Below, piece after piece: positions 191-13,824 of a stretch of 14,783 bases of DNA; positions within the stretch are counted from its first letter, which is position 1, and each line of letters starts with the position of its first letter. The DNA is from a virus (Duplodnaviria > Heunggongvirae > Uroviricota > Caudoviricetes): the IMG/VR virus record IMGVR_UViG_2541047897_000004. The stretch is one strand, 5' to 3'. Below the pieces are notes generated by a model. That model was not told where the DNA came from and did no database searches. It was given only the letters and a program-made list of their open reading frames with translations. Made by a program: the position numbers and the translations under genes.

Positions 191-192
191 TT
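172..192. repeat. attL-type direct repeat (3' end of tRNA-Thr, actcctattatcggcaccatt)
   Basis: 21-bp sequence identical to 13313-13333; overlaps the tRNA 3' end, as is typical for tRNA-targeting integrases. Confidence 0.85.
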
Positions 193-794
193 AAGAAAAT
201 CAATAACTTAGCTTAACTTCTCTAAGAAATTGTATCTTCTGTTATCACTTACAAACGCCTATACGTTGTTATGGGCTTTGGTAGTGTAACACGTATGGGC
301 GAGTAGTTCACAGGCTCAACCTCGTAACAAGTTCCTTTGAAGCTGGAAGACGTGCCACCGTCTCTAAACCTTCTACCAAAACTCTTAGCAAGATGTTCCA
401 CACCTGGCGCGGTGTCCAATGATGCTACACGTCGTGAGACGTTGCAGAGGATAAACAGGCTAAATGATGGGAAGAGTTTTAAGTGCATAGTGGATTAAAG
501 CCCACCTCTTCAAAACCTAACTTGATCGGGAAAGAATCAAGCTCTAGCACGGTTTCGTCCACCGGAGTACAACGGGTGCCTGATAAGAGAAGAACTGCTA
601 AGACTTCATAGCTTTTGTGAAAAAGCCCTTTTTAGTGGATACGCCTACGGCGCTTATTTTTTGGTATAACCATCAAAGGCGCTTTATGGCTCCTATTGTC
701 TTGAAAATGTATCTTTACTTGTATTGTGTTTTATGCGTAGCCTTCCTGTGTAGTATGTAACTTGTTAATTTTCATATGAATACAGAGGCACACG

Positions 795-947
795 ATGAAA
801 AACATTGCAGCTATCAAACGTAATAACCGCAAGATTCACGCTCGTAAGTTCCTGTCTACGCCAGAAGGAAAAGCCTGGCTAGAGCGTAAACAGCGAGAGA
901 ACGAAGAAAGAAAACTCCTTAGTGAGTTGAAATGGCTTAAGGATTGA
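795..947 (+). CDS. small basic protein, 50 aa (MKNIAAIKRNNRKIHARKF...), hypothetical
   Basis: ATG at 795 with GAGG 7 nt upstream; ORF below the 60-aa cutoff of the supplied track; lysine/arginine-rich. Function unknown. Confidence 0.35.
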   Translation: MKNIAAIKRNNRKIHARKFLSTPEGKAWLERKQRENEERKLLSELKWLKD

Positions 948-1013
948 ATCACCAGTAGGCGCATAACACATCCAGCGATCAAAGATGTGTTTATGCACCT
1001 GATAGTGAAATTA

Positions 1014-1172
1014 TTAAAGTCGTTTAGTTAACATCGCCATTGCTTGAGCAATAATTGCAACAGCGTCCATCTCTTCACTGGAAGCGATGCAAATGCGGTA
1101 ACTAATAGCCACAACGAATACATCAATAACGAGAAAGTGAATAGTGTGAAGATGTTTTGAAAGTAAATGCAT
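1014..1172 (-). CDS. small hydrophobic peptide, 52 aa (MHLLSKHLHTIHFLVIDVFVVAISYRICIA...), hypothetical
   Basis: ATG preceded by GGAGGA (4-nt spacer) on the minus strand; hydrophobic core consistent with one membrane helix; not in the ORF track because it is under 60 aa. Could be spurious. Confidence 0.25.
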   Translation of the reverse strand: MHLLSKHLHTIHFLVIDVFVVAISYRICIASSEEMDAVAIIAQAMAMLTKRL

Positions 1173-1512
1173 AACTTCCTCCGGTTTTACGATAGGAAGA
1201 TTAGAACATGCATTAAATGATGTTACAAGGGTGGTAATTTACCCTAATAGTCTACTATTCACCTCAATCTACGTCAACCAATATTTGATGTAGATTTAAT
1301 TTTCTTTTAAAAACAATGTGTTGCAATTTGTTGAATTTTGGGGTTAGGTTGTTTTTTGAACGTTTTCATCAAGTGTAAAGATACGTTTAGCCTTCATAGT
1401 GAGTTCAGTTACTGTCTTTTTCTCTGAAATCGGCGCAGACGTGATCAATGTTTAACGCGAAGATCAGCGGCGTCAGGTCCACGCAGCGACAATTCTCAAA
1501 TATCAGGAGGCA

Positions 1513-2064
1513 TTACGCTTCCTGCTCTTTCTTGATACGTTGCACCGTCTGTGTGCTGACACTGAAATCTTTTGCTACGCTCCGAATTGATCCACCATTC
1601 GCGAGAGCGGCAACAATTCCCGCTCGATCAATTGCTTTTCCATTACCACGTTTTGCTATACGTCCAGCGGCCTTAGCTGCGGCGATCCCCTCACGCTGCC
1701 GCTCAAGCATCATTTCACGTTCCATTTGTGCCACTGCTGCAAGCACTGTGAGCATCATATTCCCTGCGGGAGAGTTCTTCCCTGTCTTAAAGTCTTCTTT
1801 ATGGAAATGCACAGACACGCCGCGCTCTGTTAATTGCTCAACCGTTGCCAGTAGGTCGGCTGTATTACGGCAAAGTCGATCAATGCTGTGAACATGCAAA
1901 ACATCACCTTCACGCACATAGTTCATCATTGCCTCAAACTGTGGGCGCTGGGTATTCTTGCCTGACGCTTTATCTTCAAAGACTTTATCAAGAGTTACTC
2001 CAGCTAATTGACGGTCTGTGTTTTGTTGGACAGTCGATACCCTAATGTATCCAATATTAGCCAT
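1513..2064 (-). CDS. serine recombinase (resolvase/DNA-invertase family), 183 aa from the second Met
   Basis: N-terminal IGYIRVSTVQQNTDRQ catalytic-serine motif, DKASG, TVLAAVAQMEREMMLER and a C-terminal HTH (SIRSVAKDFSVSTQTVQRI), all hallmarks of small serine recombinases. AGGA lies 8 nt upstream of the second ATG (2064); the ORF track starts two codons earlier at 2070. Confidence 0.9.
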   Translation of the reverse strand: MANIGYIRVSTVQQNTDRQLAGVTLDKVFEDKASGKNTQRPQFEAMMNYVREGDVLHVHSIDRLCRNTADLLATVEQLTERGVSVHFHKEDFKTGKNSPAGNMMLTVLAAVAQMEREMMLERQREGIAAAKAAGRIAKRGNGKAIDRAGIVAALANGGSIRSVAKDFSVSTQTVQRIKKEQEA

Positions 2065-2593
2065 TTTCATTTTCCTTCTGTGTTGATTTGTGTGTAGTGA
2101 TTATTGATCGTGTTGATTAGGTGTGTAAAGGACTTTTTTCACTACGAAATTCGAAGGTTTTTAGTGTGGTGATTTAGCCTGCTTTATCACTACACGTCTT
2201 GCATGAGAATCATGTAGTTACATTTTGGTAAAATTAGCAAGCTATTAAATAGTGTGTTTATTTTGAAAAAATAATTTTTTGTTGCATTAAAGGAAACTTG
2301 TTCGACAAATAATAGATTGATTTTTAATCAACAATTTCTGATAGTGCTCTGTAAGCCGCATTACACAAGGCTTTGCGAAAGTGATGTAAAAGTGAAGAAA
2401 GTAAGAATTGCACTTTTAAGCTACTTTTCATTGAATTTTTAGTATGGAATTACATAAGGATTAATCATCAATTAATCTTGAATTTAAGCCTGTTTTAGAT
2501 GTTTAATTTTGGTAGCAAGAAACACTTTTAGAAGATCATTGCACAGATGTTATGTGATAAATGGATGTAACGGTAGGTCACTGTGAACTACCC

Positions 2594-2724
2594 CCACAGA
2601 ATTCTGTTATCCTTAACTTTTAAAGAAATATGCACCCTAACAGAAAACTGTTACCCCAACCCTAACAGAATTATGTTATACACCCCCACAGAAAACTGTT
2701 AGCCACCCCTACAGAATTTTGTTA
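2594..2724. promoter_or_regulatory. array of five 16-bp palindromic sites, consensus yAACAG-N4-CTGTTA (iteron/operator-like)
   Basis: Sites at 2594-2609, 2638-2653, 2663-2678, 2686-2701 and 2709-2724, each preceded by a C-tract (cacccc); centre-to-centre spacing 44, 25, 23, 23 bp; site 2 is a perfect palindrome TAACAGAAAACTGTTA. Confidence 0.6.
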
Positions 2725-2841
2725 CCTATTAGATCAACTATCAAACTACAATTAAATTATCTTTTATAAATTCTTTTATCTTTAAAGAATAATTATAGGG
2801 ATACCCGTTAGGGGAGTCCTTGACTATCCCTTAATCTATTG

Positions 2842-3215
2842 GCATTCGCCAGAACCTTGCACAAGTTAGAGTGTTAGTCGTTAGACTGCTTGTCATAACA
2901 CATAGTTTTTGTTTGTTGATGTTAGTTAGTAGATCTATGTTCGCTAATGCCGCTCACAACGAATATGTAATCTACTATGTGCAAATAGCCTACGGCTTGC
3001 GTAAGGCTAAATAGTCTTGCGCTGTGCGCAGAACGATAATTAACTAACTACCATCTAACGATTGAAATTTACTTGTGCAATAACCTGAGCGTAAGCGAAT
3101 GGTTGTTAGTGTCTATGCGCTGTGCGCTTCAATAGTTCCATTGATGAGGCTTACGCCAATCTAACGATCATCAATCATCTAAAATAAATTTCTTGTGCAA
3201 TGTTCTGGCGAATGC
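2842..3215. repeat. 24-bp inverted repeat pair (GCATTCGCCAGAACcTTGCACAAG at 2842-2865; CTTGTGCAAtGTTCTGGCGAATGC at 3192-3215) flanking a 326-bp segment
   Basis: The reverse complement of the left copy matches the right copy at 23 of 24 positions; the intervening segment holds a degenerate ~100-120-bp tandem duplication (gcgctgtgcgc, atctaacgat and cttgtgcaat each occur twice). Confidence 0.6.
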
Positions 3216-3695
3216 AATTAGAGTAGCGTTACCCCTTTGGGGATGCTAACGCATAACTATAGATCAACCATCAAACAGACAAAAAAGAAAAATATGGTTT
3301 AAAGATGTTAGGTAGTAGATGAGATTCTACCGCTTAAATCAAGCCGTAGGCGAGCTAAACGTATATAAGGCAGGGAAACACTTAGCGGTAATAGATTATC
3401 TCGTTATAGAGCTTCTGAGGAGCTTTACAGGTATTTTATAAGGTGTCTGAAATTAGAGTTAATCTATCATCTCCTTTTCATATACCTAACAAATACAAAA
3501 TAAGCCCCTTAAATAAGCCTCTGGCGAGCTAAACAGCCTCTACATAAGGGAATGTATTGTATTTATCAAAACCTCGTCAGAGGGCGTTTTAGAGCGTTTT
3601 AGAGAATAAGGAAGAATAGGAGTACTCGTAAGAGCACGAATTGCTAAGAAAAATTATAACACACTGAAAATGATCAATATTTTTATGGCTAGGGG

Positions 3696-3724
3696 TTGAC
3701 AAAAGCTTTTAGTCGTGGTAAAGT
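3696..3724 (+). promoter_or_regulatory. sigma70-like promoter candidate (TTGACA-17 bp-TAAAGT) for the small-protein operon
   Basis: Perfect -35 hexamer at 3696-3701, 17-bp spacer, -10-like TAAAGT at 3719-3724; about 120 bp upstream of the first ORF at 3848. Confidence 0.4.
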
Positions 3725-3847
3725 AATATTAGGGACAGAAAACATTCTTATCCTCTAAGTAATTAAACCAATGCACCGCACTTTGAAGCCCAACAAGGCT
3801 TGCAAGGTGTTTTTTCTTTTAACCAAATAGAATAAGGAGGCTAATTA

Positions 3848-4024
3848 ATGAAATATTTTACTCCACAGGATGTAGTTGAAGCCTGGAAACGTGGTGAGAT
3901 TAATCGTTTTAAAGTAAGGATGAACAGGAACACAGCGCGACGCTGTGGTTATCCAGAGCGTGAAAAATGCTTTGACGATGCACTAAAAATTATTGATGAA
4001 CTGCGTAAGGCAGAGAAAGAATAA
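3848..4024 (+). CDS. small protein, 58 aa (MKYFTPQDVVEAWKRGEINRFKVRMNRNTARRCGYPEREKC...), hypothetical
   Basis: ATG preceded by a consensus AAGGAGG 7 nt upstream; absent from the ORF track only because it is under 60 aa. Confidence 0.6.
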   Translation: MKYFTPQDVVEAWKRGEINRFKVRMNRNTARRCGYPEREKCFDDALKIIDELRKAEKE

Positions 4025-4045
4025 TAACAGGAGAAGGAGAAAACT

Positions 4046-4216
4046 ATGAGCGAAACTACAGAAAAGAAAAGACAACCACGCACTTGCTTTCATATTCCTG
4101 ATGAAGTATTTCAGGTGTTGTTTAAAGAAGCCAGAAGTAAACGTATCACTGTTACAGATTACATTCTTGATATGTTGAAAAGAGAGGCTGAAACACTCTC
4201 AAACAAAAGCAAGTGA
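4046..4216 (+). CDS. ribbon-helix-helix (CopG/Arc-like) DNA-binding protein, 56 aa
   Basis: GGAGAAGGAG upstream of the ATG; sequence RTCFHIPDEVFQVLFKEARSKRITVTDYILDMLKRE fits the beta-strand/helix/helix pattern of RHH regulators and antitoxins; under 60 aa so not in the track. Confidence 0.6.
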   Translation: MSETTEKKRQPRTCFHIPDEVFQVLFKEARSKRITVTDYILDMLKREAETLSNKSK

Positions 4217-4269
4217 TTTTTATCACCATAGTAGCGCCGTAGAGCGTGATTACATCAAGGAGATTTTTA

Positions 4270-4839
4270 ATGATTAATGAAGAACAATTTGTAAAAGTTC
4301 CTATGTGGATTCTAAAAATAAGCCAAGTAAACGGGCATAAATTTACAGATAGTGCTAAAAACCTTTACTGCTATTTGAGAGGGTTTGATCGTGCATTTCC
4401 CTCTTACGCTAAGATAGGCGATGTTTTTGGCATAACACCAAGAGCAGCAGAAGAAAGGGTTAAGAAATTGCTCGAAATGGGATTAATTATAAAAGATGCA
4501 CGACCAGGAAGCTCTAACCTTTATCGAGTGCTTGATATTCCAAAAGGAGAATCATCACTACCTGATCCTTCTGAGAAAGAAGACGAATCTAATGGAATAT
4601 TGAATGTTTCCGAAATCATCATTGAAGAAGAAACACAGGAATCAGAGTTCCCTGAGCGGCCCGAAATTTTTACTTGGCTTCTTTCCCTTGATAAGAAGAA
4701 ACCACCACACGAAGAAACAGAAGATTTTGTAAAACGAGCATTAGATTCAAAGAATATCTATCTTTGTGAAAATGATTTTGACTCTTTGATAATTGATCTC
4801 AAAAGTGAGAGCACAATATATGATTCACTACCCTTCTAA
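4270..4839 (+). CDS. winged-helix/HTH DNA-binding protein with acidic C-terminal tail (possible replication initiator or regulator), 189 aa from the ATG
   Basis: AAGGAG 6 nt upstream of the ATG at 4270 (the track's 4246 start is a GTG); N-terminal ...LYCYLRGFDRAFPSYAKIGDVFGITPRAAEERVKKLLEMGLI resembles wHTH domains of plasmid/phage replication-organiser proteins; C-terminus is rich in Asp/Glu. Family assignment is by eye only. Confidence 0.75.
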   Translation: MINEEQFVKVPMWILKISQVNGHKFTDSAKNLYCYLRGFDRAFPSYAKIGDVFGITPRAAEERVKKLLEMGLIIKDARPGSSNLYRVLDIPKGESSLPDPSEKEDESNGILNVSEIIIEEETQESEFPERPEIFTWLLSLDKKKPPHEETEDFVKRALDSKNIYLCENDFDSLIIDLKSESTIYDSLPF

Positions 4840-4848
4840 GGAGAATAA

Positions 4849-5118
4849 ATGACTTATAACATCACTATAGGAAACAAAACTATTGAAATAACTGAAAGCG
4901 GATACAACATTTTAAAATCTATTTTGGACATAGAGTTCTCACCCCCGACAGTGGTTAGCTTTTGTAGTTTAGGCGGCTACAGCGCACAACACGTGAATCA
5001 TTGGTTAAACCATTTTACATCGTTCGGTGTGCTGGATTATGAAGGGATTAACAGCACTACATTTCGTCTTTTGAAATTAAACAAAGATTTTGAATTGTTT
5101 ATCACAAACAATCAATAA
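4849..5118 (+). CDS. hypothetical protein, 89 aa
   Basis: AAGGAG 5 nt upstream of the ATG; co-directional and tightly packed with neighbours; no recognisable motif. Confidence 0.7.
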   Translation: MTYNITIGNKTIEITESGYNILKSILDIEFSPPTVVSFCSLGGYSAQHVNHWLNHFTSFGVLDYEGINSTTFRLLKLNKDFELFITNNQ

Positions 5119-5214
5119 CAACAGATCGGGCAATACATATGGCAAATGCATTTATGGCGATATTCATCGTAACTATGGCATTCAGTTTTTATAATCCACA
5201 TAAAAAGAGGGAAA

Positions 5215-5598
5215 ATGGGAAGAAAGAAAAAGAACAACTTAAAACGTATTGAAAAAAACAGTAATTTCAATTCAACAAGACAACGTCCACCGACACATAC
5301 CAATAACGAAATTCCAGGGGAAGAGATAATCTTTATTCTTGAAACAGAATCCCCTGAATTAAGTGATGAAGAATTAGAAATAATCCAATCAATGCCAGGC
5401 GTTTACTTTCGCCCAAGAACAAGAAAACAAACTATCATTTCTGATGGCACTCTGAAACGTTGGCAGCTTTTAGGGTTTAGCTCCTATCATCATTTTTTGG
5501 GATTTAACGCTTTCAATAATTGTGTAGGTGGTGCATCGGAAGTCGATCTGATGGCTCATTTAGAAGATACATTAGCTTCTAACAAACGTTCTAACTAA
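5215..5598 (+). CDS. hypothetical protein with basic N-terminus, 127 aa
   Basis: AGAGGG Shine-Dalgarno upstream of the ATG; N-terminal MGRKKKNNLKRIEK; no recognisable catalytic motif. Confidence 0.65.
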   Translation: MGRKKKNNLKRIEKNSNFNSTRQRPPTHTNNEIPGEEIIFILETESPELSDEELEIIQSMPGVYFRPRTRKQTIISDGTLKRWQLLGFSSYHHFLGFNAFNNCVGGASEVDLMAHLEDTLASNKRSN

Positions 5599-5655
5599 TA
5601 AAATGATGGGTGTATGTATAAGCGCCCAATGAAAATATTCGAAAAAGGAAAAATA

Positions 5656-5859
5656 ATGATTGGCTATATTCAAGAAACACAATTATTTCAGATGATCCTG
5701 TCTGATGCAAAAAACTATGCTGAGTTAATTCGGCTGGCAAAAGAAACAGAAGACTACGAAGCATTAGAGCGTTACCGTGATGAAGTGCTGACGCTCAAGA
5801 CACCTTTTAACATCGTATTGAATATGATTAATGATGCATTACAAGGAGAAGACGCATAA
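5656..5859 (+). CDS. small acidic protein, 67 aa (ORF extends to 5614 for 81 aa)
   Basis: AAGGAAA 5 nt upstream of the internal ATG at 5656; stop overlaps the next start (TAATG at 5857-5861), implying translational coupling; net negative charge. Confidence 0.6.
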   Translation: MIGYIQETQLFQMILSDAKNYAELIRLAKETEDYEALERYRDEVLTLKTPFNIVLNMINDALQGEDA

Positions 5860-6167
5860 TGGAAGAAGATATTAGCAATGCAATGGAACAACTTTTAGAT
5901 CTGACTATCTCACTACAAACAAGAATAAATCAAGCCTATTCAGATTTATGCGATTACACGCTCTCACAATGCGTTATTAGCTTAATGAAGGTGAATGTAA
6001 GCCTTGACGATTTTATCTCTCTGGTGAGCGATTTAGAGCTATCAGAGGACGATGCAAAACAGTGTAATCAAATCATCACAGACATCGCCACCACGTTAAA
6101 GGTTGCAAGTGAAGAGATTCAGCAATTAGTAGATGATTTAGCAAAAAGTGCTATTTTCTCTAAATGA
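5859..6167 (+). CDS. strongly acidic small protein, 102 aa (about 19 Asp/Glu versus 6 Lys/Arg)
   Basis: ATG overlaps the upstream stop; AGGAGA upstream; composition counted directly from the translation. Confidence 0.7.
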   Translation: MEEDISNAMEQLLDLTISLQTRINQAYSDLCDYTLSQCVISLMKVNVSLDDFISLVSDLELSEDDAKQCNQIITDIATTLKVASEEIQQLVDDLAKSAIFSK

Positions 6168-6443
6168 TAATGAAAATTATTTGCATTTATAATGATTTTG
6201 TTATATAATAATTTTAGGGGTAGATAAAAAGATTTTAGTTGGTGTTAATCCTTCTACTGTCATAAATCCCTGCATATGGAAGGTGATAGCCTCAAAGGTT
6301 GAGTGGCATTAACCTCTAACAAATATTACCTTCCATCTCTCAAGAAGTTTTAGAATAATCATAACTCCCTCTTTGATTGTTGATTGTTGATTGTTTCTAC
6401 GTTGTGTTGATGAATGTTGTTAGGCATTGTGCTTAATTTTGAT

Positions 6444-6490
6444 AAAAGCGGGTAGGTGTTATCTCCTTGCCCTTCCCGCTTTTATTTTTC
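6444..6490 (+). terminator. rho-independent terminator candidate downstream of the small-protein operon
   Basis: AAAAGCGGG (6444-6452) pairs with CCCGCTTTT (6475-6483), followed by ATTTTTC. Confidence 0.55.
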
Positions 6491-7028
6491 ATCTATGCTT
6501 ATCCTAAAGCTCCTTATTTTGTCCGAAAACATTAAAGAGCCTTACACTGATAGTTATATTTTATAACTATTTACTAACATCATTAAACTCTTATTTAATG
6601 ACGGAAGTTAGTAACAGAATAATCTATTAAGTTGTTGTCAAAAACAATCATCTGCATAGCGTTAGCCGCAAGCAGAGAGAGTTTAGCTAAGAATTGTGCA
6701 ATAACCTTTGGAAATATTGATAGCAAAACGGGTTTTATAGACTGCAAATCTATAATCTTTGGTTGTAAAAACGCTTTTTCTGAAACGGTAGATTATTGTT
6801 GGTGTAGTTAATTCTATTAAAATTTGATCTGTGAGTAGATGAGAATTGGAATAGTGATTCCTTAAAGCCTTACTTTGTTGCATCCACAGCAAAAACAGGC
6901 AGCGGTTAGCCACCGCACCCAGAATATCAGATCTTAGTGATTCCAGTGGCAAACTCCTAAGAGCCTTCCTTTCTAAGGTCTGATATTCACTCTTTAAGCA
7001 TATCATCAAGTATATTTAAAAAGTGTAT

Positions 7029-7056
7029 TTGCTGATATGTTTAATCCTCTTATAGT
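7029..7056 (+). promoter_or_regulatory. sigma70-like promoter candidate (TTGCTG-16 bp-TATAGT) upstream of the cargo block
   Basis: Hexamers read directly at 7029-7034 and 7051-7056; followed by a terminator-like hairpin (AAGCCCC 7091-7097 / GGGGCTT 7130-7136 plus T-run) in the leader. Confidence 0.3.
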
Positions 7057-7169
7057 TTAACTTATCAATTATGTAATTGCCCGCACGTTAAAGCCCCTTT
7101 GCTGGTCAGAATTAACCTCTTACGGCATTGGGGCTTTTTATTTGTCTGGCACTAACAGGAACGTTATTT

Positions 7170-7367
7170 ATGAAACAAGAAATGATTATCAGCAAAGACG
7201 GGGAAACGATGATTGTTAGTGATGAAAACCTCATTAAGGTTGCCGCACTGTTGGGAGTTACTCCCGAAAGTCTTCGTTCTACCACTGCTCAATTATTTAA
7301 ATCGGCTGATGCGGTTAGTCTTGCTGATGCCCTTAAATCTAAAATTAAACAACTGAAAGGAAAATAA
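7170..7367 (+). CDS. small protein, 65 aa, possible HTH (…LIKVAALLGVTPESLRS…)
   Basis: ATG at 7170 with AGGA 9 nt upstream; the track's longer form starts at a TTG (7128) that overlaps the leader hairpin. Confidence 0.55.
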   Translation: MKQEMIISKDGETMIVSDENLIKVAALLGVTPESLRSTTAQLFKSADAVSLADALKSKIKQLKGK

Positions 7368-7371
7368 TCTT

Positions 7372-7755
7372 ATGGCTAACCCATATGGAAAATTAAAAGC
7401 AGTGAATGCGGATAATTCCCGTTCACGCTGTAAGGTAGTAGCTTACGCTGCTGATCCAGTGCTGCAAGATCGCCTCGTCAAACTGGCTTCACCTCTCACT
7501 GACGATCTTATTGTCGGGGCTTTGCTGAAAGCCGATGGCACCAAAGCAACAACCGCATCTGATATTGCTCACGTAGTAGTTGAACCGGCTTATGAAGGAC
7601 AGGAAAGCGTAGTGGTTGCACATCCTACTTTCGTTATTCTGGCTGAAGATGGGATTGAATTTAACAGCATGGAAAAGGCAAGTGTTATTGCAAAACTGCA
7701 ATCTCTCGGCTTTGTAATTGCTGGTTATGAAGAACTTGCGATCCCTACGACTTAA
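7372..7755 (+). CDS. hypothetical protein, 127 aa
   Basis: AAGGAAAA upstream; 4-bp gap after the preceding gene. I compared it to lambda D and U type small virion proteins and could not confirm either. Confidence 0.8.
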   Translation: MANPYGKLKAVNADNSRSRCKVVAYAADPVLQDRLVKLASPLTDDLIVGALLKADGTKATTASDIAHVVVEPAYEGQESVVVAHPTFVILAEDGIEFNSMEKASVIAKLQSLGFVIAGYEELAIPTT

Positions 7756-7769
7756 CAAGGAAAATAATA

Positions 7770-8801
7770 ATGAATGATTTATCAACATATTTTGGCGTTA
7801 ATACTGCGGTAGTAACTCCATTTGCTTATGAGAATGCACTTAATACCCTGATTACTAATCTCGATCTGTTCGATGTGCAATATCATACAGAAAACAGCAT
7901 TCTTCTTACCGACCTGATTGATCAGTTTGTGCAGGTAGCTGGGGAAACCTCGCCTTACGCTCAAAGCGACTGGAACGCCTCTAAACGTCAGGAATGGTCA
8001 AACAAACTTTTCCAGATGAAACACGTCGGCAGTATTAACGCTGTTACTTCTCGTGACCTGGAACAATACAGCCGCCAATATCCAAACCGTTCTGATGCTA
8101 TGCTGGTAGCGGTTAATGATTTCTCTGAGGCTCATTACCGTTCACACGCAAACCGTGTTGAAGTGGATCTGATTACCGCGCTGCTGGGACTGAAAGTTGA
8201 ATCTGAATATGCCGGACAAGGTGATCTCGACTTCCTCGACGGTCAGGCTAAAACCACGGTACCCGCTATCGACTTTGCATCGACTACTGTTAACCCGTTC
8301 CTTGCTATTCGTAAAGCGGTGCGCTTACAGAGTGAAAAGCTGGGGTCTGGTCTTGCTGCAAAGCGAACTGGTGTAATTATCTTTGCTGCTGGCGCTGCTG
8401 CTGATGGTTTGTCATCTAACCCGCTGATCAGTGACATGGTGAAATATGCAGGTGATGCGAGTGCTACGGCCCTGTTTACCCGTATGGTTGATTCTAACCC
8501 AGCCTATGACTCTTTCCAGATTGGTGGGATCACTGTTATTGATGTGTCAATGTTTCCTGAGATTGTTGCTCACATCGGAGAGAACGGTTTCGCAATTGTC
8601 CCGGTAATGGATAAATCGGTACAGTGTTACCAGCTTCACACAGGCGTTGGTGTGCGTCATGCTGAGTTAGGTCAAGATGCCGTGTTGCATCACCAATATC
8701 TAATCAAGGATGAATTCCAATTCCCATCTGTGGTTACTGAGACATCTTATCTGCCAGTAAACAACATTCCGCAAGCTATCATCTTCGGATCTGCTGCGTA
8801 A
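7770..8801 (+). CDS. hypothetical protein, 343 aa (possibly virion-structural-like; unverified)
   Basis: AAGGAAAA upstream; long clean ORF with higher GC than the left half of the element (by eye); Gly/Ala-rich segment GVIIFAAGAAADG; no Walker A, HxH or other catalytic motif seen. Size and position are compatible with a capsid or major tail subunit, but I see no diagnostic motif. Confidence 0.8.
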   Translation: MNDLSTYFGVNTAVVTPFAYENALNTLITNLDLFDVQYHTENSILLTDLIDQFVQVAGETSPYAQSDWNASKRQEWSNKLFQMKHVGSINAVTSRDLEQYSRQYPNRSDAMLVAVNDFSEAHYRSHANRVEVDLITALLGLKVESEYAGQGDLDFLDGQAKTTVPAIDFASTTVNPFLAIRKAVRLQSEKLGSGLAAKRTGVIIFAAGAAADGLSSNPLISDMVKYAGDASATALFTRMVDSNPAYDSFQIGGITVIDVSMFPEIVAHIGENGFAIVPVMDKSVQCYQLHTGVGVRHAELGQDAVLHHQYLIKDEFQFPSVVTETSYLPVNNIPQAIIFGSAA

Positions 8802-8954
8802 TAAAGCATTAATAGACGATTCCCATCGTCTGGAAAATAAGGGTAAAGGGATTACCTAACCTGTAGGCGCAAATACAGTAACGAATCTCTTTGCCTTTTT
8901 TGTTTTTCTACTGTCTACAAACCCAAATAAAAATATATATGTGAGAGAAAACCA

Positions 8955-9152
8955 ATGAACACAGAAAATTCACAGGCATTAATTCTTAAGTCTGTAAAAG
9001 AACTGGCAGCTATTAGCGATGACTCAATAATCAATGTCAGTGCCTTATGCAGAATGCTTTCAATTGATGCAAATAATGTGCGGCAGCGTGTGTTTCAGAC
9101 TGGGTGCAGCACTTTTGAAGCAATTACATACTACTGTTCTAAAAAACAATAA
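8955..9152 (+). CDS. small protein, 65 aa, HTH-like (…INVSALCRMLSIDANNVRQRV…)
   Basis: ATG with GAGAGA upstream; helix-turn-helix-like segment; sits between the 343-aa and 633-aa genes. Confidence 0.55.
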   Translation: MNTENSQALILKSVKELAAISDDSIINVSALCRMLSIDANNVRQRVFQTGCSTFEAITYYCSKKQ

Positions 9153-9186
9153 CAAACAACAATCATAATACAGGGAAACAATTAGC

Positions 9187-11088
9187 ATGTTAGAAATTAG
9201 CGCCTCACGAATTAGTAATGTTGTGACATTTACCACTGATTTCAAGAGCTTACAGAAAGCTAAGAATGAAGTGGATAAGCTACAAAAGAAGATGCAGGGG
9301 ATCAAACCTGTGCAAGTGGCGGCAGCACGTCAGAAAGATTTACAGAGGCTGGGAAAAGAGATTCAGCGCCAGCATGATCAGCATGTTAAGCAGGCTGTTA
9401 AATCTGAGACACAGGCATCTAAAGCCAGCACTAAACAGAAGCTACAGGAAGCTAAAAACCTCGCTAAAGCACAGGCTAAACGAGCCTCAATTGCTGAAAA
9501 GGCAGAGATCAAGCGCCTTGCATCATATCGCCAGTTACAAGGCATCAAGAACAATTCCCGCTATGGCGAAGGGATGGATATTAAGAAATATCACGATGCT
9601 CTACGTTACATTAAGGAACAAACCCGCCTCTATGAATCCGGCGCTATATCGCAAGCGAAGATGAATGCCCTGATCCGTGACCGCATCACATTAGAAAGAC
9701 GAGCCGCAGCCGCTGCTACGCGTCGTAATGCTGCCGCTGGGGGGGTATATCCAGTTACTTCTAAGAAGCTCCACAAAGAAGGTGTTAGCGGCGGTGGCGC
9801 GTTAATGATGGGCGGTGTTGGTGGCATTATCGGCGGCGCTGCCGTTGGCTTAGGAAGTATGGCTGTATCCGCTGGAATGGAAAAAGCCCGTGAACGTATG
9901 GAATTGCAGAAGATGAGCGATCTGGTAGGTGCCGATAGCAATCAGGTGGCTGCAATGGTTAATTGGGGGAGGGCAAACGGTGTATCAAGTGCAAGCGCGG
10001 ACAAGACCACTGATAATATCAAAGACTTAAACGAACGCATTGGTCATCAAAGCCGAACTGCTGAATGGGATAGTAAGAAAAAAGAGTGGCGAGGCGGGGA
10101 AGGATCATTAAATGATATTCAGAATGCCTTTGCATGGAACAAAGATAAGATAGCTTCCTACCAGGGGCGACCGCTGCAACTCTTGCAAGACGTGGTGAGA
10201 GAAGGTGAACGCCGAGGAATGACTAAAGAAGCCATCATATCCCTGATCGAACCATTAGCAGACGATGCCAGCCATTATCTCAAGATGTTTTCCCGTGATG
10301 GGGAAGAGTTCCGTAAAACGATGGTTGATATGGAAAACAACGGGCAGCTACTGACAGAAGCACAGAAAGAGCAATATCGCGCAGCTAACAAGACAGCTAC
10401 AGCCTTTGACCGTCTGACAGATGGACTATCGAATCAGGCTATTTTGGGCTTCTTTGATGGCATAGCCAACATGCCAGCACTCAAACCGGAAGAAAGCAAA
10501 GCCTTACAGAATGCAGCTTATGGTGTTGGTGCATCGTTCGGGGATTTGGCTAAACAAGGCGCTGTATTACTGACCTCTATGACTTCTTACGGGAATCAAA
10601 TCACAAGCTGGATTAATAAACATCTTAGCCGTGGTGAGAATGATAACCGACCTGAGACACAAAAGGTTATGGACGCTGTTACAGATGGGGAATGGTCGCC
10701 ATCAACGATTATCAATGAAGGTATTCGTTATGCAACTGGACTCGATACGAAAGATGTAGGGCGTATTGTGCGCGGTGAGGAAACACAGTCCGGCGTTCCA
10801 GGGTGGTGGACTGATTTAATTAATGGCAATGCTAACAGCTACGGATCAACCCTTGTTGCACGTAAAGCAGAAGCCTATCAGCCGACTGTAAGCCTACAAC
10901 GTCAATACGCAACCCCTGTTAACGTGAATGCACAGGTTACGGTGCCGAGTGATATGATCTCTGTTAACGTCATCCCTAACGGTCCCGGCTTTCAGGATTT
11001 AATCCGCACTGAGATCAGAGCGAACAACAATCAGTTTAGTTCGAATCTGATTCTTAGCACGTTGTCAGGACAGAGTAGCGTTAACTAA
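9187..11088 (+). CDS. large coiled-coil protein with Gly-rich hydrophobic segment, 633 aa (tape-measure-like; unverified)
   Basis: N-terminal ~180 aa is K/Q/A/E-rich with heptad-like character; GGGALMMGGVGGIIGGAAVGLGSMAVSAGM hydrophobic glycine-zipper segment; no nuclease or ATPase motif. This architecture is common in phage tail tape-measure proteins, but I cannot confirm homology. Confidence 0.8.
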   Translation: MLEISASRISNVVTFTTDFKSLQKAKNEVDKLQKKMQGIKPVQVAAARQKDLQRLGKEIQRQHDQHVKQAVKSETQASKASTKQKLQEAKNLAKAQAKRASIAEKAEIKRLASYRQLQGIKNNSRYGEGMDIKKYHDALRYIKEQTRLYESGAISQAKMNALIRDRITLERRAAAAATRRNAAAGGVYPVTSKKLHKEGVSGGGALMMGGVGGIIGGAAVGLGSMAVSAGMEKARERMELQKMSDLVGADSNQVAAMVNWGRANGVSSASADKTTDNIKDLNERIGHQSRTAEWDSKKKEWRGGEGSLNDIQNAFAWNKDKIASYQGRPLQLLQDVVREGERRGMTKEAIISLIEPLADDASHYLKMFSRDGEEFRKTMVDMENNGQLLTEAQKEQYRAANKTATAFDRLTDGLSNQAILGFFDGIANMPALKPEESKALQNAAYGVGASFGDLAKQGAVLLTSMTSYGNQITSWINKHLSRGENDNRPETQKVMDAVTDGEWSPSTIINEGIRYATGLDTKDVGRIVRGEETQSGVPGWWTDLINGNANSYGSTLVARKAEAYQPTVSLQRQYATPVNVNAQVTVPSDMISVNVIPNGPGFQDLIRTEIRANNNQFSSNLILSTLSGQSSVN

Positions 11089-11161
11089 GTTTAACGATAA
11101 CTAATAATAAAGCGGGGGCAATATTTATTGCTTTCCGCTCATTACACAAGGATTAATATAA

Positions 11162-11818
11162 ATGGCTATCAAAGAAAGTCAGATCAACAGCACATCTAAC
11201 ATTAATACATCTAACAGCAAGGTTAAATCTGATAACGGATTTGCCATTATATGTAGCAACCTGAATAACGAGAATGCATCAACGATAGCCAGTTATAAAG
11301 CTATTACTTTTGACGCTGTTCCGGCAACTAAGGTTTCACGTTCTGCCGATGTTACATCGTATCCTGTGCAGGATGGTAATGATGTATCTGATAATGTCAG
11401 GATCAAGAATAATAAACTTATGCTTTCAGGCATTATTACAGAAACACCATTAGCATTACGTGGTGATATGCTATCAAGTGCAGGGGTGAACGGTAACAGG
11501 TGTTCACAGGCTATTGCTTATCTTGATGAAATAATGAATGCCAGACAGCCTATTATTGTAAGCACAGAGCATAAGACGTTTGATAATATGATTCTGACAG
11601 GCATTGACTACGAATATAAAACAGAATCAGCTTTACAGTTTGATTTGCAGTTCGAACAGATAAGATTAGTGAGTTATGCAACTACTAACGCTATTGCTGT
11701 AAAGACCGCATCACCTAAGAGCACAGGCGGACAGGTAAAAAGCCAAGTGCCAACCAATGCAGGAACAGCCAGCACCACTAAAGACACCCTTCCGACGTAT
11801 GACGGAGAAGTGAAATAA
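11162..11818 (+). CDS. hypothetical protein, 218 aa (possibly tail-associated; unverified)
   Basis: AAGGA upstream; Ser/Thr/Asn-rich termini; follows the 633-aa gene in the position a distal-tail protein would occupy if that gene is a tape measure. Confidence 0.75.
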   Translation: MAIKESQINSTSNINTSNSKVKSDNGFAIICSNLNNENASTIASYKAITFDAVPATKVSRSADVTSYPVQDGNDVSDNVRIKNNKLMLSGIITETPLALRGDMLSSAGVNGNRCSQAIAYLDEIMNARQPIIVSTEHKTFDNMILTGIDYEYKTESALQFDLQFEQIRLVSYATTNAIAVKTASPKSTGGQVKSQVPTNAGTASTTKDTLPTYDGEVK

Positions 11819-11852
11819 TCCCTATAAAGAACGATGTAGCGAGATAATCATA

Positions 11853-11888
11853 AAAGAGGCTACCAATCTATATTGAAGCCTCTTTATT
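11853..11888. terminator. bidirectional hairpin terminator between convergent genes
   Basis: AAAGAGGCT (11853-11861) pairs with AGCCTCTTT (11877-11885), 15-nt loop, T-run after; lies between the stop of the 218-aa gene (plus) and the stop of the integrase (minus). Confidence 0.55.
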
Positions 11889-11892
11889 ACGT

Positions 11893-13170
11893 CTATAGCG
11901 TTGTTTTACGCCTTAAATTTGATTTTTTATTGATTGATAAGCCTTTCTCTATTTCAGGGTAGCGTAAAAGCTCAATATATTTTTTAAGCTCTATTGGAGA
12001 AGCTGCATTTTTGCTATATGTGCGGAATGTTTCTGTATTGCCGCGTGTATGGCCCAGGAGAAGGGCGATCCTGTCTTCTGGAATTTGATTTCGATCAAGA
12101 AGCTGTGCTACTCCGTGTCTCAGAGAATGAAACACCTTCCTTTCTGTTCCCTTTTCCCCTAAAGCCTTTCGTTTAGCTCTTGTAAATCTCTGCGTATGCC
12201 ACGTGGAACGTTTACCATCAGCACGCTCTGTAATGCTGGCGTGATAGAACAAAAAGCCATTGTGAGGCTTTTCACGCAGCGACAACACCAACGGAGTGAT
12301 AAGGCTATGCACAGGCACAAGACGTGCCGCAGCTTTCGTTTTTCCCTGTGTGATTTCAAAACACAGCACACCTTCGATCTCTTTCACATCGTCTATTGTG
12401 AGACTTGCTATCTCATTGATCCGCATACCTGTATATAAACCGATAAGACACAAAGCCATCATTTCTTTGTTTTCTGCTGAATTACCGGAAAATACTTGCA
12501 ACACCTGCAATAGCTCTTTGTTAGAAAATGCCTCGTAGCTCTCTCTACTTTGTGCCACATCAAGCCTATGCCCTCGCCAGGGGGAGAGCGCCCTTTCTGG
12601 CGCATCGTGGTAACGTGATGAAGCTAATTCCCATAGCTGGGCCATTGGGCTGATATAATTTGCAATTGATTGTTGTGAAAGAGTTTTTTGCATGTGTTCA
12701 ATCCAGCCTGTAACAGTGGTGCGGCTTACATCTTGCAATGCAATATCAGGCTTTTTACGGTAGGAGAGAAACATCTCTACCGCTTTTCTTGCCTTAGCTA
12801 AAGTGGCTGGCTTCTTCTTCGTGCTGTTAATTGTCAGGTAGATTTCAAGAATTTTAAGCAATGACGGACACGAAGACGCTGTATCTTGCATTCTGGTAGC
12901 TGTTTTGGCGTATTTAGCCTTACTGCGTAACAGTTCCAGCGTGTTTTCTATTGTGCTGTTTACAGGGGCAACACTCTCCCGTAAGCAATGGTATTCATCT
13001 GCAATCTGATCACGCTTTCTACGTGCAACACGAAGATTACTTGTGTGCAGACTTCTGACAAACGTCCTTTTTCCTTCAAAAAAGGGCTGCATATACACAG
13101 GCAGCGTGATCCTTAAATAGTAGTTACCGTAAGAATCACAGATTAAGTATTGGTTAGGCTTGTATCTCAT
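11893..13170 (-). CDS. tyrosine recombinase / phage-type integrase, 425 aa from the RBS-supported ATG
   Basis: C-terminal catalytic region with HSLRHGVAQ and LLGHTRGNTETFRTYSK (R/H/R/Y tetrad pattern); adjacent to the right att repeat. GGAG lies 5 nt upstream of the ATG at 13170; the track's longer ORF starts at a TTG (13257) with no Shine-Dalgarno. Confidence 0.9.
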   Translation of the reverse strand: MRYKPNQYLICDSYGNYYLRITLPVYMQPFFEGKRTFVRSLHTSNLRVARRKRDQIADEYHCLRESVAPVNSTIENTLELLRSKAKYAKTATRMQDTASSCPSLLKILEIYLTINSTKKKPATLAKARKAVEMFLSYRKKPDIALQDVSRTTVTGWIEHMQKTLSQQSIANYISPMAQLWELASSRYHDAPERALSPWRGHRLDVAQSRESYEAFSNKELLQVLQVFSGNSAENKEMMALCLIGLYTGMRINEIASLTIDDVKEIEGVLCFEITQGKTKAAARLVPVHSLITPLVLSLREKPHNGFLFYHASITERADGKRSTWHTQRFTRAKRKALGEKGTERKVFHSLRHGVAQLLDRNQIPEDRIALLLGHTRGNTETFRTYSKNAASPIELKKYIELLRYPEIEKGLSINKKSNLRRKTTL

Positions 13171-13312
13171 AAAATCTCCGGCTAAAGTGTCGGAGCGTTT
13201 GTAATGTGAAAATTGATTGTGACGCATAGAAAATGATGATTTTTCTATAAGATTCAATCAATTAGTAATGGTCGTAGGTGATGGCATTAACACGAGATTA
13301 ATCGAGTGTTTT

Positions 13313-13333
13313 ACTCCTATTATCGGCACCATT
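13313..13333. repeat. attR-type direct repeat (partial tRNA-Thr 3' end)
   Basis: Exact 21-bp copy of 172-192; a further 10-bp tRNA match (ggtcgtaggt, 13270-13279 versus 159-168) lies upstream, separated by a 33-bp insertion. Confidence 0.85.
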
Positions 13334-13485: not shown

Positions 13486-13824
13486 GTGAAACTCAATGCC
13501 CGTCAAATAGACACTGCCAAGCCAAAAGAGAAGGCTTACAAGTTGGCTGATGGTGGTGGTCTGTACCTCCTGGTAAAACCTGGTGGAGGAGAATATTGGC
13601 GTCTCAAGTATCGTGTAGCTGGTAAAGAGAAGCTGTTAGCACTAGGTGTGTATCCTGAGGTCACCTTAGCTGATGCTCCTGCAAAACTTGAAGAAGCTAA
13701 AAGAGGTATCTCTGGGGGAATCGATCTGATGGAAGTGAAGCGAGAGGAAAAGATTGCCCGGGAAACGCAGTTAAACAACACCTTCAAAGATATTGCCCTT
13801 GAGTGGCACAGTAACAAATTATAA
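13486..13824 (+). pseudogene. truncated N-terminal fragment of a P4-type (tRNA-associated) integrase, 112 codons
   Basis: Translation …ARQIDTAKPKEKAYKLADGGGLYLLVKPGGGEYWRLKYRVAGKEKLLALGVYPEVTLADA… matches the conserved arm-binding N-terminus of P4-family integrases as I recall them; the ORF stops after 112 codons with no catalytic domain and AT-rich non-coding DNA follows. Confidence 0.7.

Follow-up and report, generated by a model that had tools for sequence, protein, structure and literature searches.

What does a compact mobile element do with 1.8 kb of DNA that appears to code for nothing? The question is raised by a stretch of 14,783 nucleotides (the window in what follows; virus record IMGVR_UViG_2541047897_000004 of IMG/VR), most of which is a 13.1-kb island (191-13331) bounded by a repeat of the 3′ end of tRNA-Thr (168-190 and 13309-13331). 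Within the island, a gap at 2071-3847 lies between a small serine recombinase gene (1513-2070) and the first gene of a rightward operon (start 3848). An original prediction, made from the letters of the window, had described this gap as free of open reading frames (ORFs) and dense in independent repeat families, and had supposed that it holds an origin, a resolution site, a packaging or transfer signal, a structured RNA, or several of these. We propose, with a probability of about three in four, that it is the cis-acting control region of an integrative island resembling the phage satellites, and that it would combine a replication origin with the main promoter and the terminator-bearing leader of the operon.

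The anatomy and the conservation of the gap can be observed directly. Just three ORFs of 40-47 amino acids (aa) lie in 2071-3847, none of the eight ORFs of at least 25 aa is kept intact across 10 Escherichia coli relatives, which bears out the description of the region as ORF-free, and there are no ORF remnants; RefSeq leaves the gap without annotation in all 11 loci fetched. In 11 E. coli loci the layout is that of a small minus-strand recombinase gene, followed by an ORF-poor gap of 1.7-2.4 kb and by an o58-like first gene, and wherever this part of the element is present the same layout is met in Citrobacter, Buttiauxella, Kluyvera, Phytobacter, Scandinavium and Raoultella, though the DNA can no longer be aligned. 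The gap is kept at the same place in relatives from at least 8 genera, and this conservation of position and length supports the view that so long a non-coding stretch is functional and not junk. Comparison with homologous elements, which had been put forward as a check, has yielded conserved blocks, boxes and iteron layouts, and it counters a reading of the gap as decayed sequence.

Within E. coli the gap, of which the overall GC content is 35%, is a mosaic. Positions 2268-2463 are found in all relatives, with homology reaching toward about 2600 in most of them; 3462-3847 (block C, promoter and leader) is again found in all, and the iteron zone is swapped among them. Repeats are denser than chance would have it: exact pairs of at least 11 bases number seven, against 1.65 ± 1.3 in shuffled sequence (maximum 5 among 200 shuffles), and stretches of coding sequence of equal length hold 4, 2 and 0. 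The four repeats that had been listed are all present to within one base, and the whole 14.8-kb window has 4 pairs of at least 14 bases where 1.25 ± 1.1 are expected.

The iteron array and its putative cognate protein

The proposal of an origin starts from the following features of the gap, and from a gene located downstream of it.

2567-2590, immediately before the first A-type iteron: one palindrome each of the iteron types E (GTAACnnnnGT..) and C (TAGGTCACTGTGAACTA)
2585-2727, plus strand: iteron array, a direct repeat of about 23 bp in five copies, each built on the palindromic core ACAGAAnnnTGTTA
2596-2609, 2640-2653, 2665-2678, 2688-2701 and 2711-2724: the ACAGAAnnnTGTTA cores
2728-2800: AT-rich stretch of 73 bp, 17.8% GC against 35% for the gap
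4270-4839, plus strand: gene of a 189-aa O-like protein, the putative trans partner of the iterons

The core, of which 0.48 copies are expected in the window, has five exact copies in the array and none elsewhere. The iterons start 44, 25, 23 and 23 bp apart, a helical phasing (about 22 bp or a multiple) as in iteron origins. Relatives have four or five palindromic iterons in each gap, arranged as one, an interval, and three or four more, with spacings of 42-44 bp and then of 22-25 or 32-33 bp, and this layout extends to other genera where the sequences are different. Besides type A of the window, we distinguish type B (AGGAAnnnnnTTCCT), type C (TAGGTCACTGTGACCTA) and type D (TATCAAnnnTGATA), with GGTGTCAnnnTGGCACC, ATACATCAAAATGATGT, ATACACGGGAAAAACCCG and TGTGACGnnnnGTCACA as further types in relatives. 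The AT-rich stretch, kept beside the last (cognate) array in relatives, is a candidate DNA-unwinding element. The stretch at 2567-2590 is 88-91% conserved in relatives of which the cognate array belongs to another type. No DnaA box (TTWTNCACA) is present in the gap; such boxes belong to many plasmid origins and do not define origins of the lambda type or of the PLE type discussed below.

Many E. coli relatives (L004, L007, L010 and L011, in our numbering of the loci; e.g. L004:3320-3730) have full non-cognate arrays stacked upstream of the cognate one, in the fixed nested order E-C-A-D-B-C-A. AT-rich direct repeats of 23 bp border the type C array of L007 and L011, as might be expected of an inserted cassette. 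Such arrays could act as decoys or as sites of cross-activation.

The 189-aa protein matches phrog_270, 'replication initiation protein', at 1.1e-8, and O-like families at 2e-5; a search of PDB sequences gave no match. In its structure model, residues 8-90 form a winged helix, which a disordered linker joins to a C-terminal domain of three helices. It ends with ...YDSLPF (4825-4839), and all variants of this protein, which we call Rep, end with ...(I/L)PF; a second type of C-terminal region ends with ...YEDFDIPF, close to DDDIPF, the C-terminal motif of SSB. In E. coli the SSB tail has PriA, DnaG, chi and others as its partners. The ...IPF tail of Rep may mimic that of SSB, whose DDDIPF motif recruits many replication proteins (PMC5872125).

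What couples the protein to the iterons is their covariation, which is directly established. In 18 of 18 loci, those where both the array and the Rep domain are readable, the iteron type of the array nearest the AT-rich stretch is also the type of the N-terminal domain of Rep. Nine classes are represented (A, B, C and D, the type common to L015 and L020, and the types of L018, L016, L024 and L025), and L006 is counted in this total although its type B repeats are degenerate. Type D iterons are paired with a type D Rep in E. coli (L005) as in Citrobacter (L014). The coupling is not plain linkage, because the 1.1-1.5 kb between array and Rep gene has been exchanged, and because the C-terminal half of Rep, of which there are two or three types, assorts independently of the N-terminal domain. 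Type A goes with a middle module termed M1 in the window and with another, M2, in L004; type B goes with M1 in L003, L008 and L009, and with M2 in L006 and L010.

We infer from these sequences that dimers of the winged-helix protein (4270-4839) would bind the five palindromic iterons (2585-2727), and that binding would then open the adjacent 18% GC stretch at 2728-2800; the C-terminal domain of the initiator and its SSB-like ...IPF tail would probably bring in proteins of the replisome. The origin that had been predicted is recovered here as an origin-like iteron module, on the evidence of the covariation of iterons and Rep and of phage nucleases endowed with the same DNA-binding domains.

Two departures at the Rep locus were observed besides. 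In L002 (5195-5755) and L022 the type A gene continues in frame into the C-terminal part of the o81-like gene and its product ends with ...NMINDALQGEAA, the C-terminal domain and the ...IPF tail having been lost by a multi-gene deletion. In Raoultella planticola (L021:6422-7891) the Rep slot is occupied by a 489-aa protein with a Walker-A-like motif, which may be an alternative replication module.

Phage proteins with the same DNA-binding domains

When the O-like protein was compared by tblastn with 50,697 phage records, matches were returned only in two Phapecoctavirus phages, Mt1B1_P17 and BI-EHEC. The proteins concerned, of 328-329 aa, begin with a domain (residues 1-105) that is 99% and 93% identical, respectively, to the type A domain of the window; a complete type B domain follows, and then a C-terminal endonuclease domain (phrog_681 'endonuclease' at 2e-18; Pfam MUG113 at 21.2-22.6 bits, for a cut-off of 22.3). 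MUG113 may be related to T5orf172; the nuclease domain of Odn-type enzymes is C-terminal and of the T5orf172/GIY-YIG kind. The likeness extends to DNA, that of Mt1B1_P17 being 99.2% identical to 4229-4583 of the window (355 bp), 41 bp upstream of the start codon included. Searches with the other domain types brought in a syntenic gene of two Justusliebigvirus phages, muut, where the first domain is 100% identical to type D, and inny, where it is 48% identical to the type of L025. All four Stephanstirmvirinae phages have, at one syntenic locus, a variable winged helix-turn-helix, a constant type B winged helix-turn-helix and a constant nuclease domain. The fusion genes are located as follows.

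L032:2501-3487: Mt1B1_P17 (protein QNJ49226.1)
L033:2477-3466: BI-EHEC
L034:1504-2502: muut
L035:1474-2577: inny

This architecture has a precedent in PLE, the satellite of Vibrio cholerae, and its phage ICP1. PLE has its origin in a non-coding region and uses the initiator RepA; in Odn of ICP1 a nuclease is joined to a copy of the DNA-binding domain of RepA, and the chimera cleaves the origin of PLE at its iterons (PMC8263062). The N-terminal domain of RepA covaries with the origin and its C-terminus does not (PMC8263062). By analogy, the phage fusion is an Odn-like chimera, here with two DNA-binding heads. It is because the architecture of the fusion is that of Odn, and because the N-terminal domain of RepA and the PLE origin covary, that we read the type A iterons as the probable origin of the island and also as a target: the nuclease of Mt1B1_P17 and BI-EHEC is predicted to be directed at 2585-2727.

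The structural genes of the island lead to the same group of phages. Its tape-measure-like protein (9187-11088) is 32% identical (5e-59) to the product of a tail gene of ESCO5 and phAPEC8_ev052, and its 218-aa 'baseplate' tail protein (11162-11818) is 64% identical (4e-81) to that of the next consecutive tail gene there. Genes follow one another in the island (decoration, capsid; small ORF, tape measure, tail protein) as they do in the Phapecoctavirus structural module. These homologies point to virulent Phapecoctavirus phages as the putative helpers.

A packaging or transfer signal, one of the functions envisaged for the gap, finds no support there: gap DNA had no match in the phage collection, and a search of the window with short words against 100 kb of phAPEC8_ev052, all but its last 50 kb, gave nothing in the gap. 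The sole non-coding match to phages lies outside, at 1427-1509, just 3′ of the recombinase gene. These 83 bp are 81% identical to phAPEC8-like phages (97% over a core of 35 bp), where their counterpart is part of a 1.5-kb unannotated region, and they are present only in island copies that share this recombinase flank. PLE mimics the pac site of ICP1 with an 89-bp match (PMC11417361); by analogy, 1427-1509 is a candidate packaging signal or pac-site mimic.

The rest of the gap and the rival readings

The right end of the gap has the features of a promoter and of a leader with a terminator.

3631-3648: box AGAGCACGAATTGCTAAG, upstream of the -35 hexamer, conserved across genera
3665-3676: box TGAAAATGATCA, upstream of the -35 hexamer, conserved across genera
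3696-3724, plus strand: predicted main operon promoter of the sigma-70 type, TTGACA-17 bp-TAAAGT with a TG extension, 10 of 12 consensus positions
3729-3847, plus strand: leader RNA of about 117 nt
about 3729-3758: 5′ stem-loop of the leader, with compensatory changes seen by eye where the alignment is unreliable
within the leader: conserved single-stranded stretch CTAAGTAATTAAAC
3778-3810: stem of an intrinsic terminator, with a bulged G; its T-tract, 3810-3820, ends 14 nt before the ribosome-binding site
3834-3840: ribosome-binding site, for the start codon at 3848

All E. coli relatives keep the -35 hexamer and have a -10 at the same position, and a consensus-like promoter is present at the same place in five other genera; the two boxes upstream are candidate regulator sites. 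The terminator hairpin is upheld by covariation, directly established in 12 sequences from several genera: in the 12-pair helix the share of paired cells is 97.2% and falls to 34-48% once the partners are slid, compensatory changes occur at four pairs, and a covariation score of 0.242 compares with 0.085 for shuffles, of which none in 500 attained it. In IMG/VR the leader motif is confined to this family of elements, and searching with it led to six further relatives there. A transcript starting from 3696-3724 would have to pass the terminator at 3778-3820 for any downstream gene to be expressed; as there is no room for another promoter, the whole operon would depend on read-through. The operon is probably switched on by antitermination, most plausibly when a helper phage infects the cell.

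The left end is organised around the recombinase gene.

1513-2070, minus strand: serine recombinase gene, adjoining the gap
2080-2096 and 2110-2127: direct repeats GTGTTGATTnGTGTGTA of 17 bp, containing GTGTTGATT at 2080-2088 and 2110-2118
2129-2124 and 2105-2100, minus strand: -35 and -10 of the predicted recombinase promoter, overlapped by the GTGTTGATTnGTGTGTA repeats
2164-2195: dyad of 32 bp, GTGTGGTGAT-N12-ATCACTACAC, read from the sequence, a candidate site for the recombinase or for a regulator dimer

The GTGTTGATTnGTGTGTA repeats are limited to loci with the same recombinase allele; in L005 and L010, where the allele has diverged, this position is taken by two direct repeats of another sequence, and where the recombinase is another one, relatives share a distinct palindrome, TTGGCAnnTCTAAACAnnTGTTTGAACnTTGCCAA, some 215 bp from the start of its gene. 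This end would comprise the recombinase promoter and, in all likelihood, binding sites of the recombinase. The slot itself is variable, being filled by a serine recombinase in many E. coli copies and by a small tyrosine enzyme of 190-205 aa in L008 (1893-2471) and in L014-L021, which suggests that a function in site-specific recombination has been conserved via unrelated enzymes.

Between the two ends, boxes and modules surround the iterons.

2330-2560, plus strand: block A, the core of the homology that runs from 2268 toward about 2600, shared by the 11 E. coli relatives irrespective of recombinase and Rep type
2360-2369, 2449-2458 and 2538-2547, plus strand: ATTRCACARG boxes of block A, 89 bp apart
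2780-3461: module M1, lineage-specific, present only in the window, L001, L002, L003, L008 and L009
2832-2865 and 3192-3225: inverted-repeat arms of M1, 34 nt, derived from an inverted unit and flanking 326 bp
3018-3115 and 3116-3225: direct units of M1
3072-3081 and 3192-3201, minus strand: ATTGCACAAG boxes, with a plus-strand copy at 2856-2865
3226-3252: two-tier hairpin of M1, with a different sequence and the same two-tier shape in L002, L003 and L009
3462-3695, plus strand: block C, present in all E. coli relatives, with the second copy of GGCGAGCTAAAC and the tandem GCGTTTTAGA
6693-6707, minus strand: outlying ATTGCACAAT box, in the second long intergenic region

The 10-bp box ATTRCACARG has 15 copies in the window where 4.4 are expected, a number reached in none of 200 shuffles, and it is enriched 20-fold in gaps, with 1.93 copies per kb compared with 0.095 per kb elsewhere. 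In all 11 E. coli loci, with M1 and with M2 alike, boxes that precede the iterons read on the plus strand and those lying further downstream read on the minus strand; other genera lack the box. The origin would be flanked by ATTRCACAAG boxes that converge on it and by an exchangeable middle module, here M1. The recurrence of the 14-mer TTGTGCAATAACCT at 3073-3086 and 6694-6707 finds its place in this family. Both copies exist, the first belonging to the box at 3072-3081 and the second to the outlying box, but a single recurring 14-mer in 14.8 kb is about what chance gives, and the pair has meaning only as part of the box family; the outlying box is at the same relative place in L002 and L008, and was not found in L003 and L009. 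The repeat families that had been called independent do exist, but they are not all independent, the 14-mer being part of this wider box family.

They are unequally conserved: the first copy of GGCGAGCTAAAC and the gap copy of the 14-mer lie inside the lineage-specific module. M1 is built of a unit of about 100 bp in triplicate; one copy is inverted, each has a TCTAACGA box and a CTTGTGCAAT box, and the number of units varies (98 bp fewer in L009 and H4-H12, about 115 bp fewer in L008). Other E. coli relatives have the non-homologous module M2, made of its own units of about 105 bp. M1 was considered as a miniature inverted-repeat transposable element and rejected as such, the region being single-copy per element and devoid of a target-site duplication. 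GGCGAGCTAAAC, for which 0.06 is expected by chance, is at 3349-3360, in M1 only, and at 3523-3534, the repeat extending to about 45 bp; 3480-3604, with this second copy, is conserved across E. coli. The tandem GCGTTTTAGA (two copies, 3583-3603) is kept in 9 of 10 relatives, and loci of the M2 type have a third copy about 150-170 bp upstream.

Several points weigh against a control region with an origin. The match of the 189-aa protein to Pfam HTH_36 is below the cut-off (19.9 against 25 bits); covariation of linked loci can partly reflect co-inheritance; L021 of Raoultella has neither an O-like protein nor a clear iteron array; the stacked non-cognate arrays are left unexplained by a model with one initiator and one origin; and no function is assigned to some 1 kb of the gap, made up of block A, M1 and 3480-3604. 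The helper relationship, for its part, is proposed from homology, and the capsid protein of the island has no significant match in these phages (tblastn gave none, and the major head protein of phAPEC8 is matched at an E-value of just 0.08). To this we must add that the fold search retrieved generic winged-helix regulators (LexA, ArsR, MarR, CadC), with insignificant E-values, the best initiator match being 4pta with an E-value of 0.16; the modelled fold does not separate an initiator from a regulator. RefSeq names the relatives 'transcriptional regulator', and 'ArsR family' is also found among database names. Fold and names would equally suit a regulator of immunity or transcription, with the palindromic repeats as its operators and the arrays setting the specificity of repression between related elements; each repeat is indeed palindromic, as expected of operators bound by dimers, and the case for an origin is one of comparison. 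We nevertheless consider operators unlikely, as the array is clear of both promoters, being about 1.0 kb upstream of the main one and about 0.5 kb away from that of the recombinase, while four to five phased copies beside a 73-bp stretch of 18% GC make the layout of an origin. The PHROG matches to replication initiators and O-like proteins, the SSB-like tail, which fits recruitment of replication proteins, and the phage endonuclease fusions, which mirror the origin-directed Odn, argue in the same direction.

The gap might also be a substrate of the small recombinase, either a res-type site with the GTGTTGATT repeats as subsites, as had been predicted, or an invertible switch delimited by the 34-nt inverted repeat. 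The adjoining serine recombinase matches Tn3/gamma-delta resolvase (1e-27) and the Gin/Hin invertases (7e-25) about equally, a tyrosine recombinase in the same slot of other relatives looks as if function had been kept, the first 130 bp from the gene start include direct repeats and a 32-bp dyad, and the inverted repeat flanks 326 bp. Yet the inverted form of 2866-3191, sought with a synthetic inverted query, was found in 0 of 710 E. coli genomes, no minus-strand piece occurred among the fetched loci, and about half of the E. coli relatives lack the inverted-repeat module though they have the same recombinases; its arms are also unlike hix and gix sites. As to resolution, 2071-2200 has two direct 17-bp repeats and one 32-bp dyad, not the three subsites, each an inverted pair of motifs of about 12 bp, of a res layout, and nothing comparable is conserved in relatives. 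Direct, allele-specific and placed on a predicted promoter, the GTGTTGATT repeats fit autoregulation at least as well, so that their role as res subsites is not supported, and a resolution site, which may exist in 2071-2270, would account for little of the 1.8 kb; we find a recombination substrate decidedly unlikely as the explanation of the gap. That its main product should be a long RNA or small non-coding RNAs, with 2795-3260 as a large structured RNA, is very improbable. This segment is predicted to fold strongly, the 3226-3252 hairpin is replaced by a sequence of the same shape in related loci, a terminator-like hairpin lies at 3407-3427, and the leader is itself a short structured RNA. 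But the folding is equal on both strands (z of -7.2 and -8.8), as expected of any long inverted repeat in DNA, to which we ascribe it; windows of 150 nt are unremarkable (z mostly -2.9 to +1.6), no promoter-like site faces 2795-3260, and M1 is not conserved across the family and varies too little for covariation. Rfam gave nothing credible in the whole window with E-values up to 1, and in the gap nothing at the gathering score, matches up to an E-value of 10 being chance-level ones to snoRNA and miRNA. The structured RNA that had been anticipated is therefore retained as the short terminator hairpin of the leader and not as a large fold, for which Rfam is empty and of which the long inverted-repeat module is absent in about half of the E. 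coli relatives. Hardly credible, finally, is a gap made of decayed sequence, pseudogenes or recombination scars, to which the mosaic structure and the swapping of modules would lend themselves and of which the stacked non-cognate arrays could be the scars: length and position are kept across genera and blocks among diverged elements, the boxes are ordered in orientation and enriched 20-fold, structure and specificity both covary, and ORF remnants are missing.

The island and comparable known systems

A control region with an origin has to be considered in its setting, of which the landmarks at the ends are the following.

115-190: tRNA-Thr(CGT), at the start of the window
13309-13331: the last 23 bases of tRNA-Thr again, with 2 mismatches
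11893-13257, minus strand: tyrosine integrase gene, at the island end

Rightward of the gap come, in order, genes for two small proteins, the 189-aa initiator-like protein and several small proteins, then a second long gap, after which follow a decoration-like protein, a capsid protein of the lambda gpE family (PF03864 in relatives), the tape-measure-like protein and the 218-aa tail protein. The second ORF-poor region, of 1.2 kb (6168-7370), separates the early operon from the structural genes. Hairpins resembling terminators occur in it at about 6444-6490 and about 7092-7140, TTGATTG is repeated in a run at 6375-6400, a single ATTGCACAAT box is present, and the region has no match in the phage collection. 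Beyond the right end of the island, 13486-13824 encodes an N-terminal fragment of another P4-type integrase, which suggests a tandem array or the remnant of a second island at thrW. Of 5426 complete E. coli genomes, 747 have related DNA, located at thrW, leuX and glyU and near thiM. Searching with the capsid protein brought relatives in Citrobacter, Buttiauxella, Kluyvera, Kosakonia, Phytobacter, Scandinavium and Raoultella, and gap DNA matched just two records of the plasmid collection, both of E. coli and both carrying the same island.

Among the systems to which the island may be compared, PLE shares most of its organisation: an integrated island of the satellite type, a large non-coding region with semi-palindromic iterons, an initiator whose N-terminal domain covaries with the iterons while the C-terminal one is separate, repeated swapping of modules, a virulent myovirus with a chimera of the initiator DNA-binding domain and a nuclease, and a short non-coding match to phage, located here outside the gap. 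The two are unlike in that they have no sequence relationship and a different gene content, the initiator being of the HTH_36/O-like kind here and not RepA_N. The nuclease domain of the phage fusions matches MUG113/phrog_681, whereas T5orf172 is the domain named for Odn, and the fusions have two tandem DNA-binding domains. There are at least nine specificity classes here against two, with stacked non-cognate arrays in many islands, a tyrosine integrase accompanied by a small serine or tyrosine recombinase, and homologues of capsid, decoration, tape-measure and tail proteins that belong to the island. As it appears to us, it works like PLE and is not a member of PLE.

The likeness to lambda is of another kind. 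The lambda origin has four to five dyad iterons bound by dimers of O, the specificity of which is N-terminal, with an AT-rich side and no DnaA box; it lies inside the O gene, and the C-terminal part of O recruits the next replication protein. Iteron dyads, an AT-rich flank, the lack of a DnaA box and O-like PHROG matches are shared by the island, where, unlike in lambda, the iterons are non-coding and 1.5 kb upstream of the gene, there is no gene for a P-like helicase loader, and the protein has an SSB-like tail. Phased direct repeats, an AT-rich stretch and a cognate Rep in cis are common to the iteron origins of plasmids (P1, F, pSC101, R6K, RK2) and to SaPI/PICI, but plasmid origins differ from this one, which has palindromic iterons and no consensus DnaA boxes. 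SaPI/PICI origins adjoin a primase-helicase rep gene or sit inside it, and there is no such gene in the island. The leader may be set beside promoter-proximal terminators that antitermination overcomes, as in lambda PR′-tR′/Q and HK022 put, and beside the premature termination of P4 immunity: a promoter that looks constitutive has an intrinsic terminator within about 90 nt, ahead of a whole operon, and the island leader has a conserved 5′ stem-loop. No Q-, N- or put-like sequence or protein was identified for it, and we assign it to none of these systems. With Tn3/gamma-delta res and Hin/Gin the island shares a small serine recombinase beside repeat-bearing non-coding DNA, and it differs from them by the lack of a three-subsite res, of hix/gix-like sites and of the inverted orientation (0 of 710).

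A satellite iteron origin and control region is a known kind, as PLE shows; the family, its many specificity classes, its stacked arrays and the two-headed nucleases are not found in the searched literature, where, with a coverage that was partial and leaves a prior description possible, we met no account of these elements or of an E. coli Odn-like nuclease. We give even odds to the broader proposal that satellites of Enterobacteriaceae parasitise Stephanstirmvirinae (Phapecoctavirus, Justusliebigvirus), and that these phages counter them with modular, two-headed, origin-directed nucleases built on captured initiator domains, the type B head being constant and the other (type A, type D or others) swapped in keeping with the local satellite, a conflict that would drive the at least nine specificities and the stacked arrays of an apparently undescribed family.

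The consequences would reach well beyond a single window. The island is present in about 14% of complete E. coli genomes, ST131 and O104:H4 among them, and more than 700 genomes leave these 1.8 kb blank and name the initiator-like protein 'transcriptional regulator'. The PLE/ICP1 system of Vibrio is the only case of origin-directed interference known to have been studied; if the proposal is true, the gap would be the meeting ground of a satellite origin and the phage nuclease aimed at it, and a second and richer arms race of the PLE/ICP1/Odn type would be at work in E. coli, with a tractable host, many specificity classes and phages available in culture collections (Mt1B1_P17, muut, inny, ESCO5). 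It would open the question of how DNA-binding specificity co-evolves in an initiator, an origin and a nuclease, and that of the effect of the island on susceptibility to the phAPEC8-like phages of therapy cocktails.

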